Positions 37,374 to 64,000 of a stretch of 64,000 bases of DNA are shown piece by piece. Every line of letters starts with the position of its first letter. Positions within the stretch are counted from its first letter, which is position 1. The stretch is from Klebsiella pneumoniae. GTDB lineage: Bacteria; Verrucomicrobiota; Verrucomicrobiia; Limisphaerales; SXTU01. The stretch spans positions 6,397 through 70,396 of the forward strand of contig CALQJI020000012.1 in the NCBI GenBank assembly GCA_943330855.2, written 5' to 3'. The translations under genes were made by a program, and so were the position numbers. Under the pieces are notes generated by a model that saw only the letters and a program-made list of their open reading frames with translations, was not told where the DNA came from and searched no databases.

Positions 37374-38244
37374 CTTCGATCTGCGACTTGGTTTCGGACG
37401 CCAACAGCAATGCCTCCTGCTCCAGGCCGGCGTTGTGCTCGCTGATCAAATGGACGACCTGGCGCACTTCGCTGGAGTCGCTGGTTCGCAAGCGGGTGAG
37501 CAGGGATTGAGATGGGGAGTTGGCCAGTAACTCGCGCTTGGAGAAGCGGCGGAAGAGTTCCGGCAACTGCGTTGGCAGATGAAGCCGCGCTCGCGACCCC
37601 AGCCGCGCTCGCACACGCTCGAACTCATCGAGGCCAGTCGGGTCGTAGTCGGGAAGATGCCAGAGCTGGAACGCCCCGTCGGTCTGCGCCCCCAGCCAGT
37701 CGAGCAGACGATTCGAGCCGCGTCCCCGTCCGTGGATGGCCAGTGTCACCGCCAGCCCCAAAGATTCCACGGCGAGAAAGACCGCCGGGTTCTCGACCAA
37801 TGCACAGGTGCCATGCAGCGACCACGCGGGCGTTTCTCCGAGCGCAAAGGAAAACACGCCGTTCCGCTCCGTCGCCAGTGCCGCCTCCGCATCCTTGCCA
37901 TCGCGTCGCAGGACGCCGGATGCGAAGCAGCGCACGCAGACGATTTCGGGCGTGTCGTTGGCAAGCGCCTTTGAGTCGCGAAAGCGGGCGACTCCGGTGA
38001 CGCGGGCAGACGCATTTCCGGGTGTGCCTGATTCCGGGAACTCGATTCGTCGGAACGCTCGCAGTGCCGCCACGTCTCGCACTACCAGCCGCCGGCCCGC
38101 TCTGGAACGCTCCTCGACCACCACGCTGCCCTGGATCAAAGGCTTCAGCGCCTGGAGTAACGACCCGCTGCACTCGGAACGCGGCAGTGAACCCCGCTCC
38201 AGCAGCGCGTCCAATCGCGCGCAGATGTTCTCCCGCGCCGTCAT
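37354..38244 (-). CDS. Toprim-domain protein resembling the Wadjet JetD / MksG C-terminal (DUF2220-like) domain
   Basis: CALVENPAVFLAV (Toprim Glu) and WHLPDYDPTGLDEF (DxD) have the spacing seen in JetD-type Toprim domains. The ATG overlaps the stop of the SMC-like gene (ATGA). Confidence 0.6.
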   Translation of the reverse strand: MTARENICARLDALLERGSLPRSECSGSLLQALKPLIQGSVVVEERSRAGRRLVVRDVAALRAFRRIEFPESGTPGNASARVTGVARFRDSKALANDTPEIVCVRCFASGVLRRDGKDAEAALATERNGVFSFALGETPAWSLHGTCALVENPAVFLAVESLGLAVTLAIHGRGRGSNRLLDWLGAQTDGAFQLWHLPDYDPTGLDEFERVRARLGSRARLHLPTQLPELFRRFSKRELLANSPSQSLLTRLRTSDSSEVRQVVHLISEHNAGLEQEALLLASETKSQIEDANHGP

Positions 38245-40937
38245 GCCGTGGCTGCGCGCTTCACGCCCACTCGATGTTTGTTGCGAAGCACGATTCGTCC
38301 CTGCTGCGGCTGGAGAAAATAGAGCGCGTCCACTTCGCTCACCGCTTCAGGCGCGGCCGTGATGGCGATGAAACCGAGCTGTCGCGCGGTGCTCAGAATG
38401 GCGTGGCGGTTGGCCGGGTCGAGCGTCTGGATTTCGTCGAGGAAGAACGGCACCGCGCAGTCGTCGCGCCGCAACTGAGCTTTCAAGAGCAGGAGATTGA
38501 ACAGCACCTTGATGGTGATAGTCGTGCCGTGCGATTCGATTTGCCGGAAGTCGTGGTAGGTGTGCCGCCGGTCGTCCGCGCCCGTCACGGTGAAGCCGAG
38601 AGTGAACAGGTCGGCGAAACGGATAACCGGATTGCCCTCCAGCTTGCTGCGAAAGTTCGCGATGGCGGATTCCTGCATTGGGTCGTGGTCAAATAATCCT
38701 CCCGGTTGGAAGGCCGCCAGACGCTCAATCCAACTCACATAGTCGCTATTCTTCAGCACTTCCAGTTTGATCACTTTCAGGTTGGAGACGCGCACCTTGG
38801 CGAAGGCACGGTTAAGATCGGTGGCGGCACCCGCGACGTGGTCGAGATTCTTCAGCACGAGGTCGAACGTCGCCTTCAGCCCGTGCAGGTGCGCGTTCCA
38901 ATCGCGAGCCAGCGCGTCCTCCTTCTCCACCAGCGCGTCGAGTTCGCCCCGCAGGTTCGCGACCGTTTCACCTTCCTCGTGTCCGTGGAACTCGTCGCCA
39001 AACCACCGCTCCGTTTCGGCGAGCAGGTTCGCGATCTCGTCGCTCAACTTCTCCTGCTTATCCTGCTGGCGTCGGAACAGCGCGATGGCGGCGTCGAAGT
39101 CATCCGGGATGCCGTCCCCCACGACGGCCTTGCGGGAGAAATCCGGCTGGATGCACAGATTGAAGCGGCCCATGACCGCGTTGAACTCATCCTCCGCTTT
39201 GCGAATCGCGCCCTCCGCCTCGGCTTTCGCCTTCTCCGCAGTCCTGCCTTGCGCCGTGAGTTTGCTGATGCGCTCGCTGGCTGCGGCAATGGTGTCGGTG
39301 ATTTTCTTCAACTCGGCACGCAGGAGCGGCTCCTCGGCTTTGGACCGCTGGTATTCCTCGAAGCGGAAAACCAGTTTAGCCTTCGCGTCGTGCGTGGCGC
39401 GCTTGGTTTTCACTTCCGCCACAAGTTTCTCGCGCTGCTCAACGGCCGAAAGGATGCCCGTCCAGCGGCGGAGCGTCTCCGCGTATTCCTTGAGCAGCTC
39501 GCGGGCAGCTTCGACGTTTTCCAGTCCCACGAGCGGTGTGCGGCCGGAAGTAAGGGGAATCGTGACGTCCGCATCCCGATAGCAGCCACCTGAAACACGG
39601 GCCAGCAAGGCACGGAGCGCGGCCAGCAGTTCCCGCTCCCGCGTCACCTCGATGCCGTCCCGGCCCACCGCCAACTCCAGCAGGTCCGGGTTCAACAGGC
39701 GGAAGAGGAGGTTCAGTTCGTCATCGCTGAAGTGCCGCCGCAGCACGGTGACGGCGAGCTTGTCGAAGCGAGCGATGGTCTGCTCCTTCTGTTTCACCAG
39801 GCCGCCGTAGTGGTCGAGTTTCCTTTTTGCCTGTTCCCGAGACTCACCCTCAGCATTGGCAAGCTGGTTTTCCAGACCCCGAATGTCGTTCTGGAGATTC
39901 GACAGCGCGGCTCGCTCCAACTCCTCGACAAAACCGGCAAACTCCTTGTCCTGCCCCGCCAGCGCGTCCAGCCGGGTGGTGAATCCGCCCTTCTGCTCCG
40001 AGAAGGTGTTCACGTCGGCACGCCGGTCAGTCAGTTCTTCCTCGGCTTGCTTCAGCAGTCCGGCTTGCTTGGCGGCTGCCTCGCGCGAACGCACCAGCGC
40101 CGCCTCGTGTTCCTGCTCAAACCGCTGCTTCTTCCCGCTCAAGTCCATCCACCGCCAGACGAGTTCGCCGCGTGCCGTCTCGCGTTCGGCGAACTTGGTC
40201 ACGAGCTTCTCCACCAACGATTTGTTCTTTTTGAAGTTCTCGAACTGACGGCGGCGCTCCCGGATGCGGTCGTAGTCGTCGCCGAACAGCGCGCGGGCGT
40301 CGAGCGCGGTGCGGTCGGGCGGAATGTCGGCGAGCATCAGCAGCCCGTCACGCATCTGCTTTTGGGTGATGGCACTCAGGGAGAGCAGGTTCTTCAGCGT
40401 CTCGCGGAACAGATGATACTTGTCGCTGTCGCGCAACGAGACGATGCCAAGGCCACGCGCGTCGCCGCCGACGGGCGGGAGCAGCAGTTCGCGATGCTCC
40501 TGCGCGCTCTTGAGCACGCGCAGTTGCCGGAGCGCGAGGCGGGCGTTCACCTCGTTAGGTTCGCGGACCTGATTCCGCTCATCTAGGAAGTCCGTCACGT
40601 CGAAGGGACCGAGGTGACAGAATCGCTCCGGTTCGCCGCCGCTGGTCTTGCTCTGCCCGCGCCAGCCGACGACGCACTGGCCGGTCACGCCGAGGCACTC
40701 GAAGAGGACGTAGCTGTATTGGCCGGGAAAATAGAACTCGCGCGTCTGCTCCGGCGTGTAGGAGCCAAAGTTCATGTGCCCGCGGTCGTCGAGGTAGAGG
40801 AACTGGAGCGTGTTGATGAGCGTGGTCTTGCCCGTGTTGTTCTGCCCGACAATCTGGAGCGTGCCGGCCAGTTCGACCTCCGCGTATTCGTAGCGGCCGG
40901 ACTGGAGGAGGATGAGGCGTTGCGGGCCGGTGGGCAT
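38241..40937 (-). CDS. SMC/Rad50-like ABC ATPase with long coiled coil (JetC/MksB-like)
   Basis: The N-terminal P-loop is GQNNTGKTT. About 600 aa of heptad-rich E/K/R/L/A sequence follow. The C-terminal Walker B is VPFFLDEIQTLD. The protein is 898 aa. Confidence 0.7.
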   Translation of the reverse strand: MPTGPQRLILLQSGRYEYAEVELAGTLQIVGQNNTGKTTLINTLQFLYLDDRGHMNFGSYTPEQTREFYFPGQYSYVLFECLGVTGQCVVGWRGQSKTSGGEPERFCHLGPFDVTDFLDERNQVREPNEVNARLALRQLRVLKSAQEHRELLLPPVGGDARGLGIVSLRDSDKYHLFRETLKNLLSLSAITQKQMRDGLLMLADIPPDRTALDARALFGDDYDRIRERRRQFENFKKNKSLVEKLVTKFAERETARGELVWRWMDLSGKKQRFEQEHEAALVRSREAAAKQAGLLKQAEEELTDRRADVNTFSEQKGGFTTRLDALAGQDKEFAGFVEELERAALSNLQNDIRGLENQLANAEGESREQAKRKLDHYGGLVKQKEQTIARFDKLAVTVLRRHFSDDELNLLFRLLNPDLLELAVGRDGIEVTRERELLAALRALLARVSGGCYRDADVTIPLTSGRTPLVGLENVEAARELLKEYAETLRRWTGILSAVEQREKLVAEVKTKRATHDAKAKLVFRFEEYQRSKAEEPLLRAELKKITDTIAAASERISKLTAQGRTAEKAKAEAEGAIRKAEDEFNAVMGRFNLCIQPDFSRKAVVGDGIPDDFDAAIALFRRQQDKQEKLSDEIANLLAETERWFGDEFHGHEEGETVANLRGELDALVEKEDALARDWNAHLHGLKATFDLVLKNLDHVAGAATDLNRAFAKVRVSNLKVIKLEVLKNSDYVSWIERLAAFQPGGLFDHDPMQESAIANFRSKLEGNPVIRFADLFTLGFTVTGADDRRHTYHDFRQIESHGTTITIKVLFNLLLLKAQLRRDDCAVPFFLDEIQTLDPANRHAILSTARQLGFIAITAAPEAVSEVDALYFLQPQQGRIVLRNKHRVGVKRAATA

Positions 40938-40955
40938 TGGGGGTTTTTGGATTTA

Positions 40956-40981
40956 CGATTAGCGATTAGCGATTAGCGATT
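40956..40981. repeat. Tandem heptamer array (CGATTAG)x~3.7 at the junction of the small gene and the SMC-like gene
   Basis: Read directly. It contains the TAA stop of gene 40966-41529 and lies 19-44 nt upstream of the ATG at 40937. Confidence 0.9.
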
Positions 40982-41529
40982 TCGGACTGAGCCGTGTCGG
41001 GCGCGGCCGTCGCCGCCTGTCCGGTTTGGGCGAGTTCGAGGCACTTGGTGAACACGCGGTGGAACGGGCGCAGGAAACGGAATTCCTCGTCCCCGAGCCA
41101 TTTCACCCAGCCGATGCGCTCCATGTGCTTGAGCAGGTTTTCGACATCCTTGAGGTCATGCACCTTCACCTGACGCAGCAGCGCCGAGTAGCGGTCGAGC
41201 GTGAAATGCGGCAGCATCGTGAGCAGGAAGTTTTGCCCGAAGATGAATTCCTCGATCGGCCGGCCCTGATTCGCCGCGTGGTCAATGAGGATGTAGGAAA
41301 ACACCGCGATGCGCGGCAGCGTGTCGGGCACGGTCTCCGGATTGTCCGGCTCAAGGTAGAAGAACTCGCGCTCGTGGCGGACGAGCTTGAGGCCGAGCGC
41401 GTCGAATTGCGCGGTGTAGTCGTCGAAGCGCGCCGCCAGCGTGGAGAACTCGGGCTCGTCGTCCGGGCCGAGATGGTAGCCGCGCCGGAGCCGGTCGAAG
41501 ATGAGCGCGAGATGCGGGAGGGAGTTCAT
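40966..41529 (-). CDS. Small (187 aa) protein in the JetB/MksE (KITE-like) position
   Basis: The call rests on position only: it lies between the putative kleisin and the SMC-like ATPase, has a 4-nt overlap with the upstream gene, and its size and helical/WH-like composition fit. No motif was verified. Confidence 0.4.
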   Translation of the reverse strand: MNSLPHLALIFDRLRRGYHLGPDDEPEFSTLAARFDDYTAQFDALGLKLVRHEREFFYLEPDNPETVPDTLPRIAVFSYILIDHAANQGRPIEEFIFGQNFLLTMLPHFTLDRYSALLRQVKVHDLKDVENLLKHMERIGWVKWLGDEEFRFLRPFHRVFTKCLELAQTGQAATAAPDTAQSEIANR

Positions 41530-42749
41530 ACGGAGACGAGTTGGACGGGGGCAGCTACGAGCGAACCGTCGGCAGTCGGGTAGGCGCGCGGCACGCGGTT
41601 GGTGAAGGCCGCTTGAAAGCGCGGGTCGAAGACCAACTCGCCGAAACCGGCAAGCACTTGGCCCGTGTCCTTGCCCGGATGCCCCTCGACGAGCCAGCCG
41701 AGCAAATCTTCCAAAGGCAGCGAGGGCAGCACTCGTTCCGGCAACGAATCGAGCCAGAGGCGGCGCACGAGCGCGTCCGGCGCGGCTTCCTCGGCGGCGA
41801 ACTCCAGCACCGGCGGCGGCTCCGGCGGGTGTTCGATGACGCGTCGCAAGGCCAGCGCGATGGCCCCGTCACCGGGCACGTGCTGAAACCGCAGGGCGCA
41901 CACGCTGATGAGCGGCTCGCTGCCCCACTTGGCGATGCCTTCGCTTTGGAGTTTCTCCAGCGCGCGGGCCGCGCCCTCGGCGATGGCACTGGAGCGGCGC
42001 AAGGATTCGTAGAGCGGCTGAATCTCCTTGCGGCATTGTGTGAAGACCCGCAGCGCGTGGTCGCGGACGAGCCGAAGGAAGCGGAGGTTGCGCGCGAGGG
42101 CCGGATGGTCGTTGAACAGCGCCTCGTCGCGGGCGCGTCCGAGCAACCGCTCGGTGTCGTCGAAGGCCGCGCGCAGCGGCCCCTCGCGGTTGACGATGCC
42201 AATCATCGGCTCCACGTAACGCTCCATCCAGTGAACGATGCGTCGGAACTTCTCGCGCACGGACACGCGAGAACGCTCGGTCTTGAAACGCCCGATCTCG
42301 ATGAGAATGGCGTGCTGAGTTTCGTCGAGGTCAGCCTGAATGCGCCGGAGAGTCAGGCTGATTTCCTCGAAGGCCCGTTTCACCTGCGCGACATCCTCCT
42401 CGTCGAGCCCGCGGGCGAGGCACTTGCAAGTCGTTTCGAGCGAGAGCACGTAGCCGCCAATCATCTCTGGCGTGGCGGGATTCGCCTCATTGAACAAATA
42501 CGTGAGCAACCGCGCCACCGGCTCGGCAAGAAAGCAGAGTTCGCTCCCCGGCTCGGTAGGCACGAGGATTTGCAACTCACGCAAGCGCCGCCAAGCCGTC
42601 TCCGACAGCTCCTCGCCTGTGCCTGGATACGCGCGGATGAGCCGCAGCGCATCCGACTCGGATATTTCCCTTTCGTGCTCCGCCAGCGCGTGCAACAGCG
42701 GCCCATGCTGGGCGCAGAAGTTGAAGAAACTTTGCGGGTTGATTTTCAC
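41526..42749 (-). CDS. 407-aa helical protein in the JetA/MksF (kleisin-like) position
   Basis: First gene of the operon, with a GTG start at 42747-42749. The assignment is by gene order and size only. Confidence 0.4.
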   Translation of the reverse strand: MKINPQSFFNFCAQHGPLLHALAEHEREISESDALRLIRAYPGTGEELSETAWRRLRELQILVPTEPGSELCFLAEPVARLLTYLFNEANPATPEMIGGYVLSLETTCKCLARGLDEEDVAQVKRAFEEISLTLRRIQADLDETQHAILIEIGRFKTERSRVSVREKFRRIVHWMERYVEPMIGIVNREGPLRAAFDDTERLLGRARDEALFNDHPALARNLRFLRLVRDHALRVFTQCRKEIQPLYESLRRSSAIAEGAARALEKLQSEGIAKWGSEPLISVCALRFQHVPGDGAIALALRRVIEHPPEPPPVLEFAAEEAAPDALVRRLWLDSLPERVLPSLPLEDLLGWLVEGHPGKDTGQVLAGFGELVFDPRFQAAFTNRVPRAYPTADGSLVAAPVQLVSV

Positions 42750-42786
42750 TTGTCGCTCAACGTCAGGCTGCGGTCATTCCGGCCAG

Positions 42787-42873
42787 TCACAGCACCTGTT
42801 TCTTGAACCAGGCTTTCACTTCCTTGAAGTGGAAGTCGAGCGAGCGGGGCGGGGCTATCTCGCTGGGCTTCAT
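42787..42873 (-). pseudogene. Displaced duplicate of the purB 3' end (remnant)
   Basis: Nt 42787-42843 align with the real purB end at 43596-43652, roughly 47 of 57 identical by hand alignment. The remnant encodes ...[18 protein letters not shown] versus purB ...[18 protein letters not shown]. Confidence 0.7.
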
Positions 42874-43028
42874 GGCTTGAGGGCGACGACTTTGCCGTCC
42901 TGCCAGACGTAGATGGGGGTGCCGTGGGCGCGGGCGGTCTTGCGCGCGGCCTGCCCGGCGCGGCGCAGGGCGCGGCCTGCGGGGGTGAGGCGGAGCTTCG
43001 GGCGGGGGGCTTGGTTGGTTCGGTTCAT
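42870..43028 (-). CDS. Small basic protein (52 aa) coupled to the zeta-like ATPase
   Basis: MNRTNQAPRPKLRLTPAGRALRRAGQAARKTARAHGTPIYVWQDGKVVALKP. Its ATG overlaps the ATPase stop (ATGA), and its own stop overlaps the ATG of the purB remnant. It is too short to appear in the ORF track. Confidence 0.45.
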   Translation of the reverse strand: MNRTNQAPRPKLRLTPAGRALRRAGQAARKTARAHGTPIYVWQDGKVVALKP

Positions 43029-43540
43029 GGGCCTATCTCCAGCAGTTCCGGCATCTGCCGCGAATTGTCATACACTTCCCACAGGTCAGCAAGCGGGCGG
43101 TAGGTGTTTTGGAAATTGTCCCAGCCGCGCACGTAGCGGCGCAGGACGTCGGCACGCGGGACGTTGTGCCCGCCCTGTTTCACGCGGGCGGCGATGCGGC
43201 GGAGCGCCAGTAGGGGCGAATGCAGGCGCAGGAAAATGATCTCTATCCGGTAGCCGGCGGCTTTCCACCGCTGCAATCGCCCCACATACCCCAGCCCGCT
43301 CAGGGTGGTTTCAAAGGCGAAATCGGTCCGCGCCTTCGCGAGGCGGTCCAACTCCGACAGCAGCAGCCGTCCGCCCGCAAGCGAGGCCAGCTCGGGCCGC
43401 AACGGCGACAGTCCGGCAGCGATGAGGTCGGCGTTCACGAAACGAATCACGCCCGCGTCCTTCGGTAGGTATTCCCGCGCGAAGGTTGTCTTACCCGCGC
43501 CGTTCGGCCCGGCGATGACGATGCAGCGGGGAGTTTTCAT
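43025..43540 (-). CDS. Zeta-toxin-like P-loop kinase/ATPase (171 aa)
   Basis: Walker A lies in IVIAGPNGAGKTTFAREYL. ...FAFETTLSG... and ...GGHNVPRADVLRRY follow, the typical zeta/AAA_33-like pattern. Confidence 0.8.
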   Translation of the reverse strand: MKTPRCIVIAGPNGAGKTTFAREYLPKDAGVIRFVNADLIAAGLSPLRPELASLAGGRLLLSELDRLAKARTDFAFETTLSGLGYVGRLQRWKAAGYRIEIIFLRLHSPLLALRRIAARVKQGGHNVPRADVLRRYVRGWDNFQNTYRPLADLWEVYDNSRQMPELLEIGP

Positions 43541-43595
43541 GCGTGCGAACTCGTGTCTAGTCGTGGTTGCGGTTTCCGCCTCCTTACGTCGGCGG

Positions 43596-44930
43596 TTACA
43601 GCCCCAGTTTCTTGAACCGCGCTTTGACTTCCTTGAAGTGGAAGTCGAGGGAGCAGAGGGCTTCGAGTTCGCCTTTCTTGAAGTGCTTGGCGACTTCGGG
43701 ATTGGCTTGGAGTTGCGCGACGAAGTTGGCGTCGTCGCGGCCGGCGTGCTTGACCTCCCAGGTTTTCATCGCGGCGTCCTGGCAGAGTTTGTAGGCGGCT
43801 TCGCGGGTCAGGCCTTTGCAGATGAGCGCGAGGAGGATGGTCTGGCTGTTCCACATGCCCAGCGAGAGGCCGAGGTTCTTCTTCATGTTCGCGGGATAGA
43901 CCACGAGGCCGTCCATCAGGCGCGTGAGCAGGCCGAACATGTAGTCGAGCAGCGTGCAGGAGTCGGGGAAGATGATGCGCTCGACGCTGCTGTGGCTGAT
44001 GTCGCGCTCGTGCCAGAGGGCGACGTTTTCCAGCGCGGCGACGGCGTTGCCGCGCAGGACGCGGGCGAGGCCGGTGAGGCGTTCCCAGGTGATGGGGTTG
44101 CGCTTGTGCGGCATGGCGCTGCTGCCTTTCTGGCCGATGGTGAAGGCTTCTTCGGCTTCGAGGACTTCGGTGCGCTGGAGGTGGCGGAACTCGACGGCCC
44201 AGCGCTCGATGCTCGCGCCGACGAGCGCCATCGTGAGTTGAAACTCGGCGTGGATGTCGCGCTGGACGACTTGCGTGGCGATGGGCGCGGGGCGCAGGCC
44301 AAGTTTTTTGCAGACGTAGGCTTCGACGCGTGGTGAAAGGTGCGCGCTCGTGCCGACGGCACCGGAGACCTTGCCGACGGCGACGACTTCTCGGACGCGC
44401 TCCAACCGCTCCAGCGCGCGGCCGAACTCGTCATACATCAGCGCGAGCTTCAGCCCGAAAGTCGTCGGCTCCGCGTGGATGCCGTGGCTGCGGCCGATGC
44501 AGGGGGTGAACTGATGCTCCTTCGCGCGCTTGGCGAGGGCGGCGCGCACCGTCTTCACGTCGGCGATGAGGATGTCCGCGCTCTGGACCATCTGCACGCC
44601 GTAGCAGGTGTCGCCCACGTCACTGCTGGTGAGGCCGAAGTGGAACCAGCGGCTGGCGGGGTCGTTGATCTTCTCCGCGACGGCGGTGGTGAAGCCGATC
44701 ACGTCGTGGTTGAGCACTTTCTCCAGTTCCTTCTGCCGCGCCACGAGTCCGGGCAGGTCGGCGAACCACGCGTTGCAGCCGGCTTTGAGTTTGGCGAAAT
44801 CCTGCTTCGGCACGATGCGCTCCTTCACGAGGGCCTCGCTGGCGAGGAGTTCGATTTGGAGCCAGAGCTTGAGCTTGTTTTCGTCGGTCCAGATGGCCCG
44901 CATTTCAGGACGGGAGTAGCGCGTAATCAT
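43596..44930 (-). CDS. purB: Adenylosuccinate lyase
   Basis: [19 protein letters not shown]... and the [10 protein letters not shown] signature loop are present. 444 aa. Confidence 0.95.
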
Positions 44931-49647: not shown

Positions 49648-50328
49648 TCACGCCACCGGCTTCAGCGGCACCAGTCGGTTGGCTTTCCGCCGCTCGTTGA
49701 TTTCCGCGAGCATGAGGTCGCAGGTCTGCTGCACGACCTGGTGCGAGTTATCAATAATCATTGCGCCCAGCGAGGGCATGAGCGGGGAGTGGGCGCGCTG
49801 GCTGTCGCGCTTGTCGCGCGCGTGGACGTCTTCCTTCACGCCGTCGCGCTCGCGTCGGAACTTGCGGACCTCGGGGCTGGCATCGAGGAAGAACTTGTAG
49901 TCCGTCTCCGGGAAGATGTTGGAGCCGATGTCGCGGCCTTCCATGACGCAACTGCCGAACTGGAGGCACTCGCGCTGCTTGGCCTTCATCCAGTCGCGGA
50001 CGGCGCGGATTTGCGCGACATGGGCGACGGCGGCGCTGGCCTCGGAGGTGCGGATTTCTGCTGCGGGATAATAGCCGTCCACGAGCAGGCGCACATGGGC
50101 GTCGGCGACGACGAGCGAGGTCTTCCACTTGCGGCAGAGCGCGGCGACCTTCTTGTCGTCGTTCACATCCACCTTCATGCGGAGGCAATGCCACGCGAGC
50201 GTGCGATACATCGCACCGGTGTCCACGGTGAGCAGGCCGAGCATCTGCGCGAGGCGACGAGAGGTGACGCCCTTGCCGCTGGCGCTGGGCCCGTCAATGG
50301 CGATGACGTAGGGTTTGGTGTGGGGCAT
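49648..50328 (-). CDS. cmk: (d)CMP kinase
   Basis: The P-loop lies in VIAIDGPSASGKG, with TGAMYR following. I used the ATG at 50326-50328. Confidence 0.9.
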   Translation of the reverse strand: MPHTKPYVIAIDGPSASGKGVTSRRLAQMLGLLTVDTGAMYRTLAWHCLRMKVDVNDDKKVAALCRKWKTSLVVADAHVRLLVDGYYPAAEIRTSEASAAVAHVAQIRAVRDWMKAKQRECLQFGSCVMEGRDIGSNIFPETDYKFFLDASPEVRKFRRERDGVKEDVHARDKRDSQRAHSPLMPSLGAMIIDNSHQVVQQTCDLMLAEINERRKANRLVPLKPVA

Positions 50329-50335
50329 GGGATTT

Positions 50336-50371
50336 TTAACGCAAGGGCGCAAAGACGCAGAGACGCAAAGC
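50336..50371. repeat. Octamer array copy i (TTAA-CGCAAGGG-CGCAAAGA-CGCAGAGA-CGCAAAGC), cmk leader
   Basis: Read directly. It lies between the cmk ATG (50328) and the GxxExxY stop (50371). Confidence 0.9.
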
Positions 50372-50763
50372 TAGGAGTCAGGAAGGCCGTTGGCGACGCG
50401 GTGGATGCCGTCTTTCACGTAACGCTCACCGAAGTTGATGACCAAGCCGAGTCGCAGGTCAGTCAGGCGCAGGTAGGTGAGTAGTTGAGCGGAAAAGACC
50501 GGATTCCATTCCGTGACCGCCTTGTTGTCCACGAGCACTAGGCCGCCAACCCTCAAGTCCAGCCGGAGCGGGGTGGCGAGGATGTGGCCCTTGTAGTTGA
50601 TCGGGACGGGCACTTGGCGCTCCACGGTCAAACCAGCCGCTCTCAACTCGAAAACCAACGCCTCTTCGTAAACGGACTCCAGCAAGCCCGGCCCGCCGAG
50701 CGTGCGATGCACCTCGATGGCGCAAGCCACGATGACCTTGGTGATTTCGTTCTCGCGGCTCAT
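50371..50763 (-). CDS. GxxExxY protein (PD-(D/E)XK nuclease superfamily)
   Basis: The family-defining motif lies in GPGLLESVYEEAL. 130 aa. ATG at 50761-50763. Confidence 0.85.
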   Translation of the reverse strand: MSRENEITKVIVACAIEVHRTLGGPGLLESVYEEALVFELRAAGLTVERQVPVPINYKGHILATPLRLDLRVGGLVLVDNKAVTEWNPVFSAQLLTYLRLTDLRLGLVINFGERYVKDGIHRVANGLPDS

Positions 50764-50767
50764 GGAT

Positions 50768-50804
50768 TTAACGCAAAGACGCAAGGGCGCAAAGACGCAA
50801 GGAA
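50768..50804. repeat. Octamer array copy ii (direct repeat of copy i), GxxExxY leader
   Basis: ttaacgcaaagacgcaagggcgcaaagacgcaagga lies immediately upstream of the GxxExxY ATG, just as copy i lies upstream of the cmk ATG. Confidence 0.9.
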
Positions 50805-50866: not shown

Positions 50867-50902
50867 TCTTTGCGCCTTTGCGTCTTTGCGTCCTTGCGTT
50901 AA
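50867..50902. repeat. Octamer array copy iii (inverted relative to i and ii)
   Basis: tctttgcgcctttgcgtctttgcgtccttgcgttaa. Its reverse complement matches copy ii at about 31 of 36 positions. It abuts the stop of the aroA 3' remnant. Confidence 0.9.
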
Positions 50903-51035
50903 TCGGCAAATAGCTCCTCCACCGTGAGCTTGCGGCCGGTGGCGGCGTCGCGGATTTCGGCGCCGAGGCCGTGGGGGGGGGGTGGCGAGCTTCTGGAAAA
51001 AGTTGGGGAAGGTCTTCTTCACGCAGGCGGGATCC
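50899..51035 (-). pseudogene. Displaced duplicate of the aroA 3' end (remnant, frameshifted at a G10 tract)
   Basis: Nt 50984-51034 align with 51534-51584 at about 41 of 51 positions by hand. The remnant encodes DPACVKKTFPNFFQKLA...HGLGAEIRDAATGRKLTVEELFAD*. Intact aroA reads NPSCVKKTFPNFFQKLAAKLEDGGLGV...KLAVPDLFAS*. The G10 run is at 50973-50982. Confidence 0.7.
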
Positions 51036-51102
51036 TATGTCCTTATTTCATTGAGCAAATCATTTCGGCAACATCGGCAGTGACGGAAGTTGCTAGCTGC
51101 GG

Positions 51103-51429
51103 TCATAGAACTCGCCACAACGCGAACAATAAAAACACAACAACCACAATCAAGGCCGCAAGTCTGGCGGTCTGCTCATACCGCTCATAGAATTCCGGCC
51201 TGTTCTTCACCCTTTCTGAAGCCTCGGCATCGCGCTTTGCAGCCTCTCGTTCTCGAACCTGAGCCTGTTTTTCTATGGCGAGGCCTGCTACTCGGAGTCG
51301 GATGTAAATGGCCTTGGCCTTTTCTTTGTCTCCTTCTGCATCGGAAAATGCGCGCGCCCATACGCCTGCTTGAACACTGCCGTCCAACAGCTCTTTCGCT
51401 ACCTCCTCGTAGAATTTGTCGTCTTGCAT
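51103..51429 (-). CDS. Small membrane-anchored hypothetical protein (108 aa) carried by the aroA 3' cassette
   Basis: MQDDKFYEEVAKELLDGSVQAGVWARAFSDAEGDKEKAKAIYIRLRV... with a C-terminal TM segment LAALIVVVVFLLFALW. The ATG at 51427-51429 lies 7 nt after the aroA stop. The region is AT-rich relative to its surroundings. Confidence 0.55.
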   Translation of the reverse strand: MQDDKFYEEVAKELLDGSVQAGVWARAFSDAEGDKEKAKAIYIRLRVAGLAIEKQAQVREREAAKRDAEASERVKNRPEFYERYEQTARLAALIVVVVFLLFALWRVL

Positions 51430-51436
51430 AAGTAGC

Positions 51437-52825
51437 TCAGGAGGCAAAAAGGTCAGGAACAGCGAGTTTTTCCCTACTCGCTGAAGATGCGTTCAGAATC
51501 GTCACCCCCAACCCCCCGTCTTCGAGCTTCGCAGCCAGCTTCTGGAAAAAATTGGGAAAAGTTTTCTTCACACAAGACGGATTCTTGATGCGGATGCCCT
51601 GCACTCTCAAGCCGAGAATGGCGAAGCACATCGCCATGCGGTGGTCGTGGTAGGTCTCGATTTCCGCGCCGTGGAGCGCGGAGGGATAAACCGTCAGCGT
51701 GTCGCCCTCTTCACGAACATCCGCGCCGCACTTAGTCAGCTCTGTTCGCAGCGCAATTACACGTTCGCACTCCTGCACGCGGAGTCGTCCGAGGTCAGTA
51801 AAGCGCCGTGGTGCGAGATTGAGCACTGAGTTGGTGGTCGGTTTGCCTGACGGAAAGAGCTGCTGGTGTTGAAATGGCGGTCGGTTGAACGGCGCTTTGA
51901 CAATCGCAACCATGATGCTGTCCGCGATATGGTTCTTTCTGGAAATGGCTTCAAGTTGGAGGTCTCGAAGTTCTCGGTATTTGGCGTCGATCTGCCAATC
52001 GCTGGTCGGCCAATCCTTGACGATGATGCGGTTCTTCTCAGCTCGCTCACCATTGGGAAAAGGACGAATCCATTGAAGCCAATCCGCTGCCCAAAAATAT
52101 CCGCAACTCGACGCGTCCGGCTCGATTTGGAATTCGCCGCCCTTGGCCGGGAAGACCTTCACCAACTCGCGGGTCATGTCCACGTAGGGCAGTTCGTCCT
52201 CGTTCGCGCCGGTGATTTCCACCTGCCAGCCACCCACGCTGCCAGACAGCAACAGCGCGGAGGCGAACTGCGAGCTTTCCACCACGCTGACCGTCGCTGA
52301 CCGCTGACCGCTGACCGCTGGCCTCTGACTGCTGATGACGGCGGGCAGCTTGTCATTCGGCGAGTCCACGCGATACCCCAACTCGCGCAACGCGGCGAAG
52401 AGCGCGGCTTGCGGGCGCTCGTGCATCCGGGGCACGCCGCTGAGGCGATACACGCCATCGCCGAGGCAGACCATCGCCGCGAGGAAGCGCGCCGCCGTGC
52501 CCGCGTTGCCCACGAACAGCTCCAGCGGCTGCTCCGTCGTGCCCGCGCGCGGGAGGCGTCCGCCCAGGCCGTCCACGGTGATGGTGCGGTTGCAGGACTC
52601 GGCGGGGTCGGGCTGCACATCCACGGTGAAGCCGAGCGTGCGGAGGCAGTCGGTCATCACCTGCGTGTCCTCGCTCCAGAGCGCGCCGCGCAACGTGGTG
52701 CGACCGTCGGCCAGCGCGGCGAGGATGAGGGCTCGGTTGGTGATGCTCTTGGAGCCGGGCACGGTGATCTCCGCGCGCACGGGGGACGTGAGCGGGACAA
52801 TCTCGATGAGCGGCGGCAGCGACAC
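51437..52825 (-). CDS. aroA: 3-phosphoshikimate 1-carboxyvinyltransferase (EPSP synthase)
   Basis: VPGSKSITNRALILAALADG, VGNAGTAARFL, ESSQFASALLL and HDHRMAMCFAILGL are present. GTG start at 52823-52825. Confidence 0.9.
   Translation of the reverse strand: MSLPPLIEIVPLTSPVRAEITVPGSKSITNRALILAALADGRTTLRGALWSEDTQVMTDCLRTLGFTVDVQPDPAESCNRTITVDGLGGRLPRAGTTEQPLELFVGNAGTAARFLAAMVCLGDGVYRLSGVPRMHERPQAALFAALRELGYRVDSPNDKLPAVISSQRPAVSGQRSATVSVVESSQFASALLLSGSVGGWQVEITGANEDELPYVDMTRELVKVFPAKGGEFQIEPDASSCGYFWAADWLQWIRPFPNGERAEKNRIIVKDWPTSDWQIDAKYRELRDLQLEAISRKNHIADSIMVAIVKAPFNRPPFQHQQLFPSGKPTTNSVLNLAPRRFTDLGRLRVQECERVIALRTELTKCGADVREEGDTLTVYPSALHGAEIETYHDHRMAMCFAILGLRVQGIRIKNPSCVKKTFPNFFQKLAAKLEDGGLGVTILNASSASREKLAVPDLFAS
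52286..52323. repeat. Tandem heptamer array (GCTGACC)x~4-5 inside the aroA CDS
   Basis: Read directly: gctgacc gtc gctgacc gctgacc gctgacc gctggcc. It encodes SSQRPAVSGQRSATVS on the minus strand. Confidence 0.85.
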
Positions 52826-53764: not shown

Positions 53765-54055
53765 ATGGATTCCCCTGCCCCAACCGATGTTCCCCCGATG
53801 CGTGGAAGGGCGCTCTGGGCTGCGCGGCTGCGACGCTTCGGTCAACTCGGCCTGACCGTTGTCCTACTCGCGATTGGCGCGCTGTGGGGGCATGAGTTAT
53901 TCGTGGACCCGGCGGACCGCCAAATTGGGAAACTCTTCGTCTTGTTGGTCCTCCTGCCCCTCGGGGTCCTTGCGTCCATGTCCCTCGGCGTCGCGTGGAC
54001 ACTGGATCGTGGGGCTGGGGAACAGCGGCGAGGTGGTGGGCCCGACCGGATTTGA
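53765..54055 (+). CDS. Hypothetical two-TM membrane protein (weak call)
   Basis: An ORF with two hydrophobic segments (LGLTVVLLAIGALW, LFVLLVLLPLGVLASM). Its 3' end overlaps the tRNA gene on the other strand by about 22 nt. No family recognised. Confidence 0.3.
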   Translation: MDSPAPTDVPPMRGRALWAARLRRFGQLGLTVVLLAIGALWGHELFVDPADRQIGKLFVLLVLLPLGVLASMSLGVAWTLDRGAGEQRRGGGPDRI

Positions 54056-54109
54056 ACCGGTAACCAAGCGATTATGAGTCGCCTGCTCTAACCATTGAGC
54101 TACGGGCCC
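54034..54109 (-). tRNA. tRNA with CAT anticodon (elongator Met, or Ile2 if lysidinylated), CCA encoded
   Basis: The reverse complement folds by hand into a cloverleaf: GGGCCCG TA GCTC AATGGTTA GAGC A GGCGA CTCATAA TCGCT TGGTT ACCGG TTCAAAT CCGGT CGGGCCC A CCA. The G1:C72 pair argues against an initiator. Confidence 0.85.
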
Positions 54110-54224
54110 GACTACTGTGGAGTTTTGAGAAGGCAGGTGAGCGGGTGCAAGCGAATTGTCCTGTGCTTGGTTTGGCGCGGTGCGGTCTGGCCCTGCTTCT
54201 CGGAACTGCGGTCGCGACTTGAAA

Positions 54225-60510: not shown

Positions 60511-61131
60511 ATGAAAAAGACATTGTTCGCTCTCGCACTTTCCATCACCTGCCTCGCCTCAGCGGCGGACAAGGACGGTTGGATTTCCCTCTTCGACGGC
60601 AAGTCGCTCGCTGGCTGGAAGGCGAACGAGGCCCCGGATACCTTCAAGGTCGAGAACGGCGAACTCATCGTGAAGGGGCCGCGCGCGCACCTGTTCTACG
60701 TGGGCGACGTGCAGGGCGCGAAGTTCAAGAACTTTGAGCTGAAGCTGGATATCAGCACCCGGCCCAAGGCGAACTCCGGTGTCTATTTTCACACCGAGTT
60801 CGGCCCCGGCTGGCCGGCGAAAGGCTATGAGGTGCAGGTCAACAACACCCACGGCGACCCAAAGAAGACCGCCGGCCTCTACAATGTGAAGGACAACCTG
60901 GAAGCGCCCGCGAAGGACGGCGAGTGGTTCACCATGACCATCAAGGTTGTCGGCAAGCGCGTCACCACCAGCGTCAACGGCAAGGTCATCGTGGACTACA
61001 CCGAGGAGGAGAAGCCGGAGCGGAAGAGCAATCCAGGCCGGCTCATCAGCAGCGGCACCTTCGCCATCCAAGGCCACGACCCCGGCAGCGTGATTCACTA
61101 CAAGAACATCTTCGTGAAGCCGCTGCCGTGA
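60511..61131 (+). CDS. DUF1080 (3-keto-disaccharide hydrolase-like) secreted protein
   Basis: A signal peptide precedes DGWISLFDGKSLAGWK ... FAIQGHDPGSVIHYKNIFVKPL. Confidence 0.85.
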   Translation: MKKTLFALALSITCLASAADKDGWISLFDGKSLAGWKANEAPDTFKVENGELIVKGPRAHLFYVGDVQGAKFKNFELKLDISTRPKANSGVYFHTEFGPGWPAKGYEVQVNNTHGDPKKTAGLYNVKDNLEAPAKDGEWFTMTIKVVGKRVTTSVNGKVIVDYTEEEKPERKSNPGRLISSGTFAIQGHDPGSVIHYKNIFVKPLP

Positions 61132-61207: not shown

Positions 61208-62107
61208 ATGGCCCACGTCTCCGACTTCCTCACGCCGGCCGAGTTGCAGAAGGTAGCGAACTTGCAGGTCGTCGCGCGGCTGGTGGTCGAGGGCTTCTTC
61301 TCCGGGTTGCACAAGTCGCCGCACAAGGGTTTTAGCGTCGAGTTCGCCCAGCACCGGCAGTATGTGCAAGGCGACGAAATCCGCCGGCTCGACTGGAAGG
61401 TCTTCGGCAAGACCGACCGCTACTACATCCGCGAATACGAGGAGGAAACCAACCTCCGCGCCACGCTCCTGCTCGACCTCAGCGGCTCCATGAGCTACGC
61501 GGGTGCGGGCGGCGCGTCGAAGGCCGACTACGCCATCCGCCTCGCCGCCGCGCTCGCCTACCTCATGCTCCAGCAGCGCGACAGCGTGGGCCTCGTCACT
61601 TTCGACGCCAAAATCCGCCGCTACATCCCGCCGCGCTCCAGTGTGCCGCACCTGCGCGTGTTGCTCGACGAACTCCAGTCCGCGAAACCCGGCGGCGAGA
61701 CCGCGCTCGGCGGCGTCTTCCACGACCTCGTCCCGCGCATCCAACGACGCGGCCTGCTCATCGTCCTCTCCGACTGCTTTGGCGACTCGAAGGAATTGCT
61801 GAAGGCCCTCGCGCACTTCCGCCACGCCCGCCACGAGATTCTCATCTTCCAAATCCTCGACCGCGACGAACTGGAGTTCCCCTTCACCCACTGGACGCGC
61901 TTCGAGTCGCTGGAGCAGGCCGGCGCGCACCGGATGATTGACCCCGCGCAATTCCGCGCCGCCTACCTCGACAACCTGAAGAAGTTCCAAGATGAACTCA
62001 CCCAAGGCTGCCACCGCCACCATATTGACCTCGTGCAAATGGTCACGGACCAGCCCTACGCCGACGCGCTGGCGCAGTATCTGACGAGGAGGCTGGCGCG
62101 CGGATGA
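61208..62107 (+). CDS. DUF58 protein (vWA-like, MoxR-system associated)
   Basis: [49 protein letters not shown] is the DUF58 core. Confidence 0.85.
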
Positions 62108-64000
62108 CCTTCCTCAACTTCCTCCTCCTCGGCGGCATGGCGGCGGCGGCGATTCCGGTGCTGCTGCACTTCTTCAACCGCTCGCGTCCACGCGTCGTGC
62201 AATGGGGCGCGATGCACCTGCTCGACGCCGCCTTTCAGGCCCACACACGGCGGCTCAAGCTCGAGCAACTCCTCCTGCTCCTCGTGCGCTGCCTTATCCC
62301 CGTGCTGCTCGCGCTCTGCATGGCGCGGCCCGTCCTCACCGGCATGCGCGCGCTGCTCGGCGGCGCGAAGAGCTCGCTCGTCATCCTGCTCGACGACTCC
62401 TACTCCATGTCCGCGGGCGCGGGCGCGGCGTCGAACTTCGCGCAGGCCAAGGAAGCCGCGGCGAAGCTCATCGAGCAGGCCGGCTCCGGCTCCGACGTGG
62501 CCGTCATTCTCATGGGCGGCACGCCCCGGCAACTCCTCGAAGCCCCGACGCTCGACACCGTCCGCGTCACGAAGGCGCTTGCGCAACTCGAAGCCAATTT
62601 CGGCGCGGCCAACTTCCCCGAGACCCTCGAACTCGCTGCCAACGTCGCCGCGCAGATGCAGCACGGGCTGAAGGAATTCGTCGTCCTCAGCGACTTCCAG
62701 AAAGCCAGCTTCAGCGACGGCGAGGCCGCAGCTCGTGGGCGTGCGTTGCAGACCTTGAAACGCCTGCCCGTCCCGCCGCGCCTCACGTTCCTGCACGTCG
62801 GCACCGAGTCGCGCGACAACGTCGCCGTCGAGTCGCTCGACCTGCCCAAGCTTGCGCTCGGCGTCAACCAACCGCTCCAAGTCCGCGCCACGCTCCGCAA
62901 CTTCGGCGAGCGTGCATGGCCTGACCTGCGCGTCTTTTTCCACGCGGACGGCCGCGAGCGCGGCGCGCAGCAAATCGCGCTCGCGCCGGGCGAGCAGCGA
63001 CAAGTGCTCTTCACGCACACCTTCGACACCGCCGGCTTCCACACGCTCGAAGTCAACGCGGACGCCGACGCGCTCAAGGCCGACAACTCCCTCGCCGCCG
63101 TCGTCACCGTCTGGGAGAAATTGCCCGCCCTCCTCGTCAACGGCGACCCCAGCCCCGAGCCGCTCAAGGGCGAGACCGATTATCTCGACATCGCACTTTC
63201 GCCCGCGATGAAGGCCGCGACCGGCGGCAGCGACCTCATCCTCACGCGCGTCATCGCGCCCGGCGACCTCACGCCCGACGCGCTCTCGAAGTCCCGTGTC
63301 GTCGTGCTCGCGAACGTCCGTCAGCTCGCCGATGCGCAGGTCCGCGCACTCGCCGAGTTCGTCGCGAACGGCGGCGGCTTGCTCGTTTTCCCCGGCAACC
63401 GCATCAACACCGACTGGTATCACCGCACGCTCCGGGCCGCTGGCCTGCTTCCGCTGCCCTTCACCGCGCTCGCCGGCGGACTCGAAGACGGCAAGCCCCG
63501 CGTGAAGATTGTCGTCCAGCCCTTCACGCACCCGGCGATGGAACTCTTCAACGACGCACGCAACGGCAACCTCGCCGACGCGGAGATGAAGCTGTGGTTC
63601 CAGCTCGGCACGCGTCAGGAACAAACCGACCCCGGCCTCGGCATCCTCGCGCAACTCAGCACCGCCGACCCGTTCCTCGTGGAGAAGAAGAACGGCGAAG
63701 GCCGCGTCCTCCAATGCGCCGTCCCCTGCGACGCCGACTGGGGCAACCTCCCCGTGCGCCCCGTCTTCGTGCCGCTGATGCAACGCCTCGTCATCTACCT
63801 CGCGTCGCAAGCGCAGCCGCCGCGCAACGTCGAGGTGGGTAAGCCGCTCGCCGCGTTCGTGTCCCGCGCGCACGTCGGGCGGAAGGCGCAGTTCACCGGG
63901 CCTGACGGCGTGCGGCACGACGCGGCCATCACCGGACGCGGCGCGCTCGGCTACGTTGAGTCCGCGAAGACCAGCCGCCCTGGCACCTACACGCTCGCCG
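62104..64000 (+). CDS. BatA-type N-terminal double-TM + vWA domain protein (partial, runs off window)
   Basis: Hand translation from the ATG at 62104 gives [34 protein letters not shown]...[11 protein letters not shown] (MIDAS DxSxS). I translated only the first ~110 codons and the last 13 codons (...[13 protein letters not shown]) and found no stop in either. The rest is assumed open. The gene is absent from the ORF track, presumably because it has no stop. The ATG overlaps the DUF58 stop (ATGA). Confidence 0.75.

Follow-up and report, generated by a model that had tools for sequence, protein, structure and literature searches.

How does an essential gene come to have two 3' ends, one in use and one discarded? 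The question is raised by aroA, the gene for EPSP synthase, in a 64-kb stretch of DNA from contig CALQJI020000012.1 (positions 6,397 to 70,396). We call this whole stretch the window and number its positions from the first letter. On the minus strand of the window, aroA is followed by one small open reading frame (ORF) and then by a second, broken copy of its own last codons. An initial annotation had proposed that a foreign aroA 3' segment, together with this one cargo gene, displaced the native end, and that this end survives as a decaying remnant. An identity break within aroA, the G+C content at third codon positions (GC3) and the native-like character of the remnant all bear this proposal out. 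Here we describe the evidence and ask what kind of recombination could have produced such a gene.

aroA (51437-52825, minus strand) encodes a protein of 462 amino acids (PF00275, E = 2e-70; TIGR01356), and its translation contains the catalytic motifs RLRVQECER, DHRMAM and KKTFPNFF. The gene is intact but chimeric, as judged by comparison with related loci and assemblies, which are designated below by L-numbers. Its 5' part, codons 1 to ~238 (52111-52825), is native, with an overall nucleotide identity of 94-98% to the closest Limisphaerales relatives and a GC3 of 0.95. Across codons 1-150 and 201-238 the window is 92-98% identical in nucleotide sequence to L081 and L001-L003, the next relatives reaching at most 82%, and GC3 is 0.89-0.95 in the window and these relatives alike. 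Over this part of the gene the window and these four relatives form one tight clade. At ~52110 the 98% identity to L081 gives way to 79-88%, and in the tail of the gene it falls further, to 46-58%.

The distal part of the gene, its last ~224 codons and stop (51437-52110, minus strand; here aroA'), is not close to these relatives. In the conserved C-terminal part (codons 351-430) the window is 82-85% identical to L081 and L001-L003, which are 94-99% identical among themselves (98-99% for L081 and L001); distant genomes are as close to the window as these four are. Over the last 32 codons the window is only 46-58% identical to the same relatives, which match one another at 90-97%, and the tail is at most 55% identical to any sequence compared. 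Composition changes in step: GC3 is 0.70 in codons 351-430 of the window, as against 0.89-0.91 in the relatives, and 0.56 in the last 32 codons, as against 0.86-0.90. This deviation from the native counterpart is confined to the last 112 codons of aroA and the cargo. The two halves of the gene are therefore incongruent, the N-terminal part grouping with L081 and L001-L003 and the C-terminal part not; congruent halves would have spoken against the proposed replacement. On this evidence aroA is a chimera of a native 5' part and a foreign 3' part, and the break measured at ~52110 lies near the edge of ~52150 first suggested for the tract.

A low-GC tract had also been offered as evidence of import, and this argument holds only in part. 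Positions 51001-52000 do form the lowest-GC kilobase of the window, at 0.51-0.56 compared with ~0.65. The portion of the argument that concerns the middle of aroA (~51750-52110) fails: GC3 in this module is 0.50-0.68 in the relatives too, including L081 and L001-L003, which have no cassette. Low GC there is common to all relatives and is therefore no evidence for this import, and we rejected it as proof. The case for import lies in the identity break at ~52110 and not in mid-aroA GC. The module has a history of its own. L081 and L001 are only 30-60% identical within it and 97-100% identical on both of its flanks, and the sequences suggest that it has been replaced internally, and repeatedly, across the clade.

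What became of the native end? The segment 50985-51036 matches 51534-51585, within the functional and foreign-type aroA end, at 42 of 52 positions (80.8%). A BLAST comparison of the window with itself gives this repeat E = 3.7e-6; no more than 14 consecutive nt are identical, and both copies lie on the minus strand. The repeat noticed in the initial annotation is thus real, but its register is 549 nt and not 550. Aligned without gaps at the coordinates first given, the copies agree at only 25 of 51 positions, so one coordinate was off by one. The downstream copy belongs to a pseudogene remnant of 137 nt (50900-51036, minus strand) corresponding to the last 45 codons and stop of the native gene. 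Read on the minus strand from 51036 to 50900, it encodes DPACVKKTFPNFFQKLA, runs into a C-run, and continues as HGLGAEIRDAATGRKLTVEELFAD* in a different frame; relatives have CCCCGCCCCCCC where the C-run lies. The frame is shifted by a homopolymer (G10 at 50973-50982, C10 on the coding strand), just as had been noted from the window alone. The run is C9 and in frame in the sister strains L141 and L142 (99% identity); L143-L145 share the C10 of the window, and other lineages have a run of 12 nt.

This remnant is of native type. Its nucleotide identity to the aroA 3' end is 95.7% for L001, 92% for L081 and 92.8% for L147, and once its frameshift is repaired by hand its 45 amino acids are 96% identical to the C-terminus of L001 AroA. 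A better match to some other gene would have undermined the proposal; aroA is the sole match. AroA motifs that are invariant elsewhere have substitutions in the remnants, the kind of change that a pseudogene should accumulate. In L081, L147 and L001 native aroA is followed directly by cmk, the comparison of this interval among relatives having been suggested at the outset, and L081 and L147 have no cassette. In the window cmk (49648-50328, minus strand; PF02224) is the native downstream neighbour of aroA. The end in use is thus foreign, and the stub is native.

Between the two copies lies the cargo, p108, a single gene for a membrane-anchored protein of 108 amino acids (51103-51429, minus strand), whose ATG stands 7 nt past the aroA TGA, in agreement with the first description. 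Its GC3 is 0.55. In an AlphaFold model (predicted local distance difference test score, pLDDT, 82) a three-helix N-terminal domain is followed by a long helix and, at the C-terminus, by a membrane helix; searched against the PDB, the model gave no significant fold match (best E = 2.6). The N-terminal domain has 2023 representative relatives and is elsewhere fused to RDD, Lcl_C, Sel1 and FGE-sulfatase domains. In JGI metagenomes we found only distant relatives of p108, none of them adjoining aroA or cmk. The cargo is most likely a hitch-hiker, predicted to be co-transcribed with aroA. It is followed by a 66-nt spacer (51037-51102, minus strand) that is 97% identical to L082, is missing from cassette-free relatives and ends at an apparently non-homologous right junction, 51037/51036.

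Taken from break to junction, the foreign DNA is a tract of ~1.07 kb (~52110 to 51037, minus strand) comprising the distal 224 codons of aroA, the gene for a small tail-anchored membrane protein 7 nt downstream, and the 66-nt spacer. Identity and composition together point clearly to a diverged donor of lower GC3 as its source. The tract is no assembly artefact, since the locus is recovered at 99.0-100% identity in the independent assemblies L141-L146 and has the same structure across NCBI, ENA and Logan assemblies and nine runs. The nearest genomes are Limisphaerales (Verrucomicrobiota) metagenome-assembled genomes, and the runs that contain the sequence come from lake-water metagenomes. In metagenomes elsewhere the native half of aroA and the native end are deep and cassette-specific sequence is rare.

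Relatives carry variants of the same arrangement. The p108 cassette recurs in L082 and L083, joined at the same right-hand position and with a remnant that is still in frame. L084-L089 and L148 have a different cargo of 140 amino acids, p140, which has its first 47 residues in common with p108 and differs in the remainder. In the p140 form the remnant begins 27 nt earlier (CGGCTTGA...), 2-3 nt past the cargo stop; the cassettes of L084 and L148 are only 80% identical and nonetheless have this junction in common. The native sequence TTGAAA-18 nt-AAGAAT stands where this longer remnant begins; if it were a promoter for cmk, the retention of remnants would be explained. At the two right junctions, CATAG/GATCC and GAGG/CGGCTTGA, at most 2-3 nt could be shared, as measured against the native sequence.

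The window itself is a mosaic of these forms. It is identical to L084 over 900 nt (52201-51302, 100%), with 92% identity in the remnant and 95-97% in cmk, and ~99.5% identical to L082 over 51301-51037, where the flanks are 73-93% identical. The switch falls at a stretch of 20 nt (51302-51321, minus strand; AAGGCCAAGGCCATTTACAT, codons KAKAIYI) that the window (A) has in common with L084 (B) and L082 (C). Left of it, L084 matches the window at 100% and L082 does so at 73-91%; right of it, L082 matches at 97-100% and L084 is unalignable. This stretch is the crossover point between a module made of aroA' and the cargo N domain and a module made of the cargo C part and the spacer. A switch placed in the longest identity available has the signature of ordinary homologous recombination. 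It shows that cassette modules are being exchanged among co-occurring lineages.

We therefore favour, with a probability of about 0.6, a history of one-sided homologous and illegitimate recombination followed by spread and reshuffling through homologous recombination. On the left, donor DNA would have entered by homologous recombination within an aroA block of 120 nt that is ~98% conserved; the break at ~52110 coincides with the edge of this block, a sharp switch inside the anchor. On the right, a non-homologous join would have been made 137 nt before the native stop. The donor's own end would have kept aroA whole, and the last 45 native codons would have been left directly before cmk, where they would no longer be translated and would slowly decay. 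The donor would have been a relative of lower GC3 whose aroA was followed by a small gene. Afterwards the islet would have been exchanged via flanking homology, with the remnant and cmk as the right arm and no need for a recombinase encoded by the element.

One homologous anchor and one illegitimate end are the outcome expected of homology-facilitated illegitimate recombination, which de Vries and Wackernagel and Prudhomme et al. reportedly described in naturally transformable bacteria in 2002. The proposed history resembles it in a single anchor in a conserved gene, a joint with apparently little or no microhomology, and foreign DNA exchanged for the recipient DNA between them. The process is known mainly from laboratory selections, whereas at aroA it would have acted in a natural population, and its product has since spread and been reshuffled. 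The later history recalls the minimal mobile elements that Saunders and Snyder are said to have described in Neisseria in 2002, in which alternative cassettes between two conserved genes are exchanged through flanking homologous recombination. Here, too, we find alternative contents at one site (nothing, p108, or p140, with or without a gene of the GxxExxY family), mosaic flanks and no mobility genes. Unlike in the Neisseria elements, the left arm is an essential gene's own coding sequence, and a displaced second copy of that gene's end opens the right arm. In orphan modules of rhs and cdi loci, as at aroA, a new 3' end and a downstream gene push the old 3' end downstream as an orphan, and in the aroA cargo, similarly, the N part is conserved and the C part can be swapped. 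Unlike those systems, the aroA locus has no toxin or immunity domain and the displaced gene is a housekeeping enzyme; p108 and p140 have no Pfam, NCBIfam or PADLOC match, and the same searches found in them no C-terminal toxin domain with a cognate immunity gene. The aroA case is, we conclude, a known kind of recombination in a natural setting and no new machine.

Signs of a dedicated machine were sought at several levels. No recombinase lies between aroA and the remnant in at least six assemblies (gene tables of L141-L144, with only p108 there), and a search of the window for the integrase of a neighbouring strain found no homologue (best E = 0.59). Identical direct repeats of the att kind are absent from the two ends (42 of 52, with a 14-nt maximum), a weak point, as decay could blur a core. 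DNA at the boundaries folds no better than its shuffles (z = +0.8 and +1.4), with no attC-like hairpin such as an integron gene cassette would have, and an Rfam scan of the window returned only a tRNA. Among assembler contigs no excision joint 51036-51585 is listed. A phage origin was considered and rejected, the cargo and the C half of aroA having no relatives in IMG/VR.

Several observations weigh against the history that we favour. There are two right junctions, the remnant starting at AATCC in one and, 27 nt before that, at CGGCTTGA in the other, and both lie in the last 166 nt of aroA. Together with a comparable join at purB, described below, this makes three joins near gene ends (two at aroA, one at purB), more than uniform illegitimate joining would lead one to expect; joins outside gene ends leave no recognisable remnant, so ascertainment explains part of the clustering. 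The cassette is also very compact, with 7 nt before the cargo and, in the p140 form, 2-3 nt after it. In L082 two informative sites upstream of GGCTTGA are of native type, which fits a crossover at a fixed core as well. The proposed recombination presupposes DNA uptake, by natural competence or another delivery route, in a host that is uncultured. Finally, a donor-type full-length aroA' that lacks the remnant was not found among GTDB species representatives or in a set of 5.8 billion proteins, where only cassette-bearing contigs appeared. The end-clustered junctions, the compact cassette and the similar layout at purB keep rival explanations alive.

The first of these is that the locus is a decayed integrative element of the kind found at icd, or a remnant resembling a cis-mobilizable element (CIME). 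Its attP would have carried a replacement aroA 3' end, and later deletions would have spared its first gene. According to PMC13626634 (citing Hill et al. 1989), the Escherichia coli K-12 prophage e14 supplies the 3' end of icd, and the displaced end is the pseudogene icdC. The anatomy at aroA is the same: a functional 3' end supplied from outside, the inserted DNA, then the displaced C-terminal pseudogene. In both settings (and with phage 21 at icd) an essential or central metabolic gene is functional through a foreign 3' end, cargo lies between that end and a pseudogene of similar size (~50 codons), and recombination between the two copies would, by the same paper, regenerate a chimeric gene. 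Both right junctions fall within the aroA tail, L082 may switch to foreign sequence at GGCTTGA, the start of the longer remnant, and sister strains have active integrase-mediated islands nearby at tRNA-Met.

Yet the differences from e14 are considerable. That element is 15 kb long, with its own integrase and site-specific excision; the aroA insert has 0.4 kb of cargo without a recombinase, and no variant has kept an integrase or any other element gene. At aroA there is no long identical att-like core, the longest run being 14 nt, and the foreign tract reaches ~500 nt upstream of the duplicated segment, in the window and in L084, unlike the product of a crossover at a core. Because the p140 remnant begins 2-3 nt past the cargo stop, a deletion must also have ended exactly at the core. 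We consider an origin of this type unlikely.

A second explanation leans on purB, where the initial annotation had seen the same logic at work and, by extension, a recurrent targeting of essential genes. The same anatomy is indeed present there. On the minus strand, the tail of purB (43596-44930) at 43595-43654 is followed by a Zeta_toxin-like gene identified by Pfam (43025-43540), a 52-aa ORF (42870-43028) and an 18-codon remnant (42786-42845) that repeats the tail at 53 of 60 positions. The extension fares less well, for we found neither a foreign tract nor dedicated machinery: there is no identity break relative to the relatives, and GC3 of the cargo is host-like at 0.80-0.90. The cargo is present in one relative, L154, and lacking in L149-L153 and L155. 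It is a Zeta_toxin/AAA_33-like P-loop protein of 171 amino acids, and the stop of its gene overlaps the start of the 52-aa ORF; the two could possibly form a putative toxin-antitoxin-like pair with host-like codon usage. The anatomy recurs, then, but a common or recurrent targeting mechanism is unproven. In ~1 Mb of related DNA no further pair of gene and remnant was found, the hits being paralogues or antisense frames, and a third candidate within the window (62056-63918 against 60565-60699) proved to be a spurious antisense ORF. Downstream of the purB remnant, at 38241-42749 (minus strand), lies a condensin-like set containing MksE (40966-41529), a 407-aa ORF without a Pfam match and an 898-aa protein with weak, sub-threshold ATPase-type matches (DUF3584, ABC_tran).

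Could both loci have been made by a new minimal mobile cassette? Such a unit, ~0.55-0.65 kb long, would consist of a promoterless gene and a private copy of its target's tail. Its insertion at the 3' ends of highly expressed essential genes would be the work of a trans-acting recombinase; the host gene would remain whole and the cargo would be transcribed along with it. The layout is suggestive: core, tail, 7 nt, ORF, 2-66 nt, core, with sharp module boundaries. The p140 form is kept as a unit with the same junction despite the divergence between L084 and L148, aroA has two junction types, and purB has a similar layout with toxin-like cargo. Against it, we found no candidate recombinase and, at the boundaries, neither a hairpin nor a conserved motif; no sequence is common to the junctions of aroA and purB; the purB cargo is host-like in composition; and distant relatives of the aroA cargo never adjoin aroA. 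Plain homologous recombination accounts for the length of the foreign tract and for a crossover within 20 identical nt, and ~1 Mb of related DNA yielded no further case. An insertion unit of this kind is quite improbable, and we regard as doubtful the broader proposal that aroA and purB are products of undescribed mini-cassettes, recombinase-less or mobilised in trans, with the private 3'-end copy as one integration arm and the displaced end as the second.

That nothing was imported, and that the locus reflects local tandem duplication of the aroA end with later divergence or else an assembly chimera, is hardly credible: the two copies are homologous and adjacent, but it is the native-like copy (95.7%) that is non-functional and the divergent, low-GC3 copy that functions, the opposite of what duplication and decay predict and therefore enough to rule them out, and the agreement among assemblies and runs described above disposes of a chimera.

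Other insertions lie close to this history without being part of it. Within aroA a heptamer, CAGCGGT, is repeated three to four times in tandem and in frame (52291-52350, minus strand), and an alignment of nine genomes indicates that it is a separate variable insert outside the cassette. Relatives have other heptamers at the same spot: CTGCGGT in L081, with an in-frame stop, four copies of CCCCAGA in L001 and five of AATCGGA in L003, those of L001 and L003 being flanked by inverted repeats of ~25 nt. In L142, which is 99.7% identical, there is one unit fewer and aroA is split into two ORFs. The insert looks like a hairpin/heptamer element of the short tandemly repeated repetitive (STRR) type within a coding region.

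Between the remnant and cmk the window has a GxxExxY gene of the PD-(D/E)XK type (50371-50763, minus strand; PF13366, TIGR04256). It is bracketed by CGCAAAGACGCAA-type arms at 50336-50370 and 50768-50803, which are inverted relative to 50867-50902. Many metagenome contigs break or join at such arms, so the repeat is dispersed. The gene is absent in L081, L082, L084 and L001 and is an independent insertion. In the cassette-bearing relatives L082 (745-880) and L084 (1360-1480) the CGCAAAGACGCAA arms are replaced, in the spacer between remnant and cmk, by a different palindromic repeat that is also dispersed, GTCGCAACCTTTAGGTTGCG ... CGCAGGCTAAAGCCTGCGAC. On the far side of aroA, the collinearity of L141 and L142 with the window ends at 54112, where they have an island with Phage_integrase and HTH_17 genes adjoining tRNA-Met (54034-54112, minus strand); beyond this tRNA the window sequence differs from theirs.

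The aroA locus is a well-resolved natural example of an essential gene rebuilt from two lineages, with a passenger gene slipped in behind it. Cases of this kind calibrate how often one-sided, illegitimate recombination occurs in the genomes of uncultured bacteria. They are also a warning, as aroA, a common phylogenetic marker and the target of glyphosate, can be chimeric. The locus further flags a widespread and unnamed family of three-helix domains as a frequent passenger. If the mini-cassette proposal were true, a cassette dedicated to tail replacement would give genes a new way to move, and single promoterless genes could travel with essential operons and spread from one to another.

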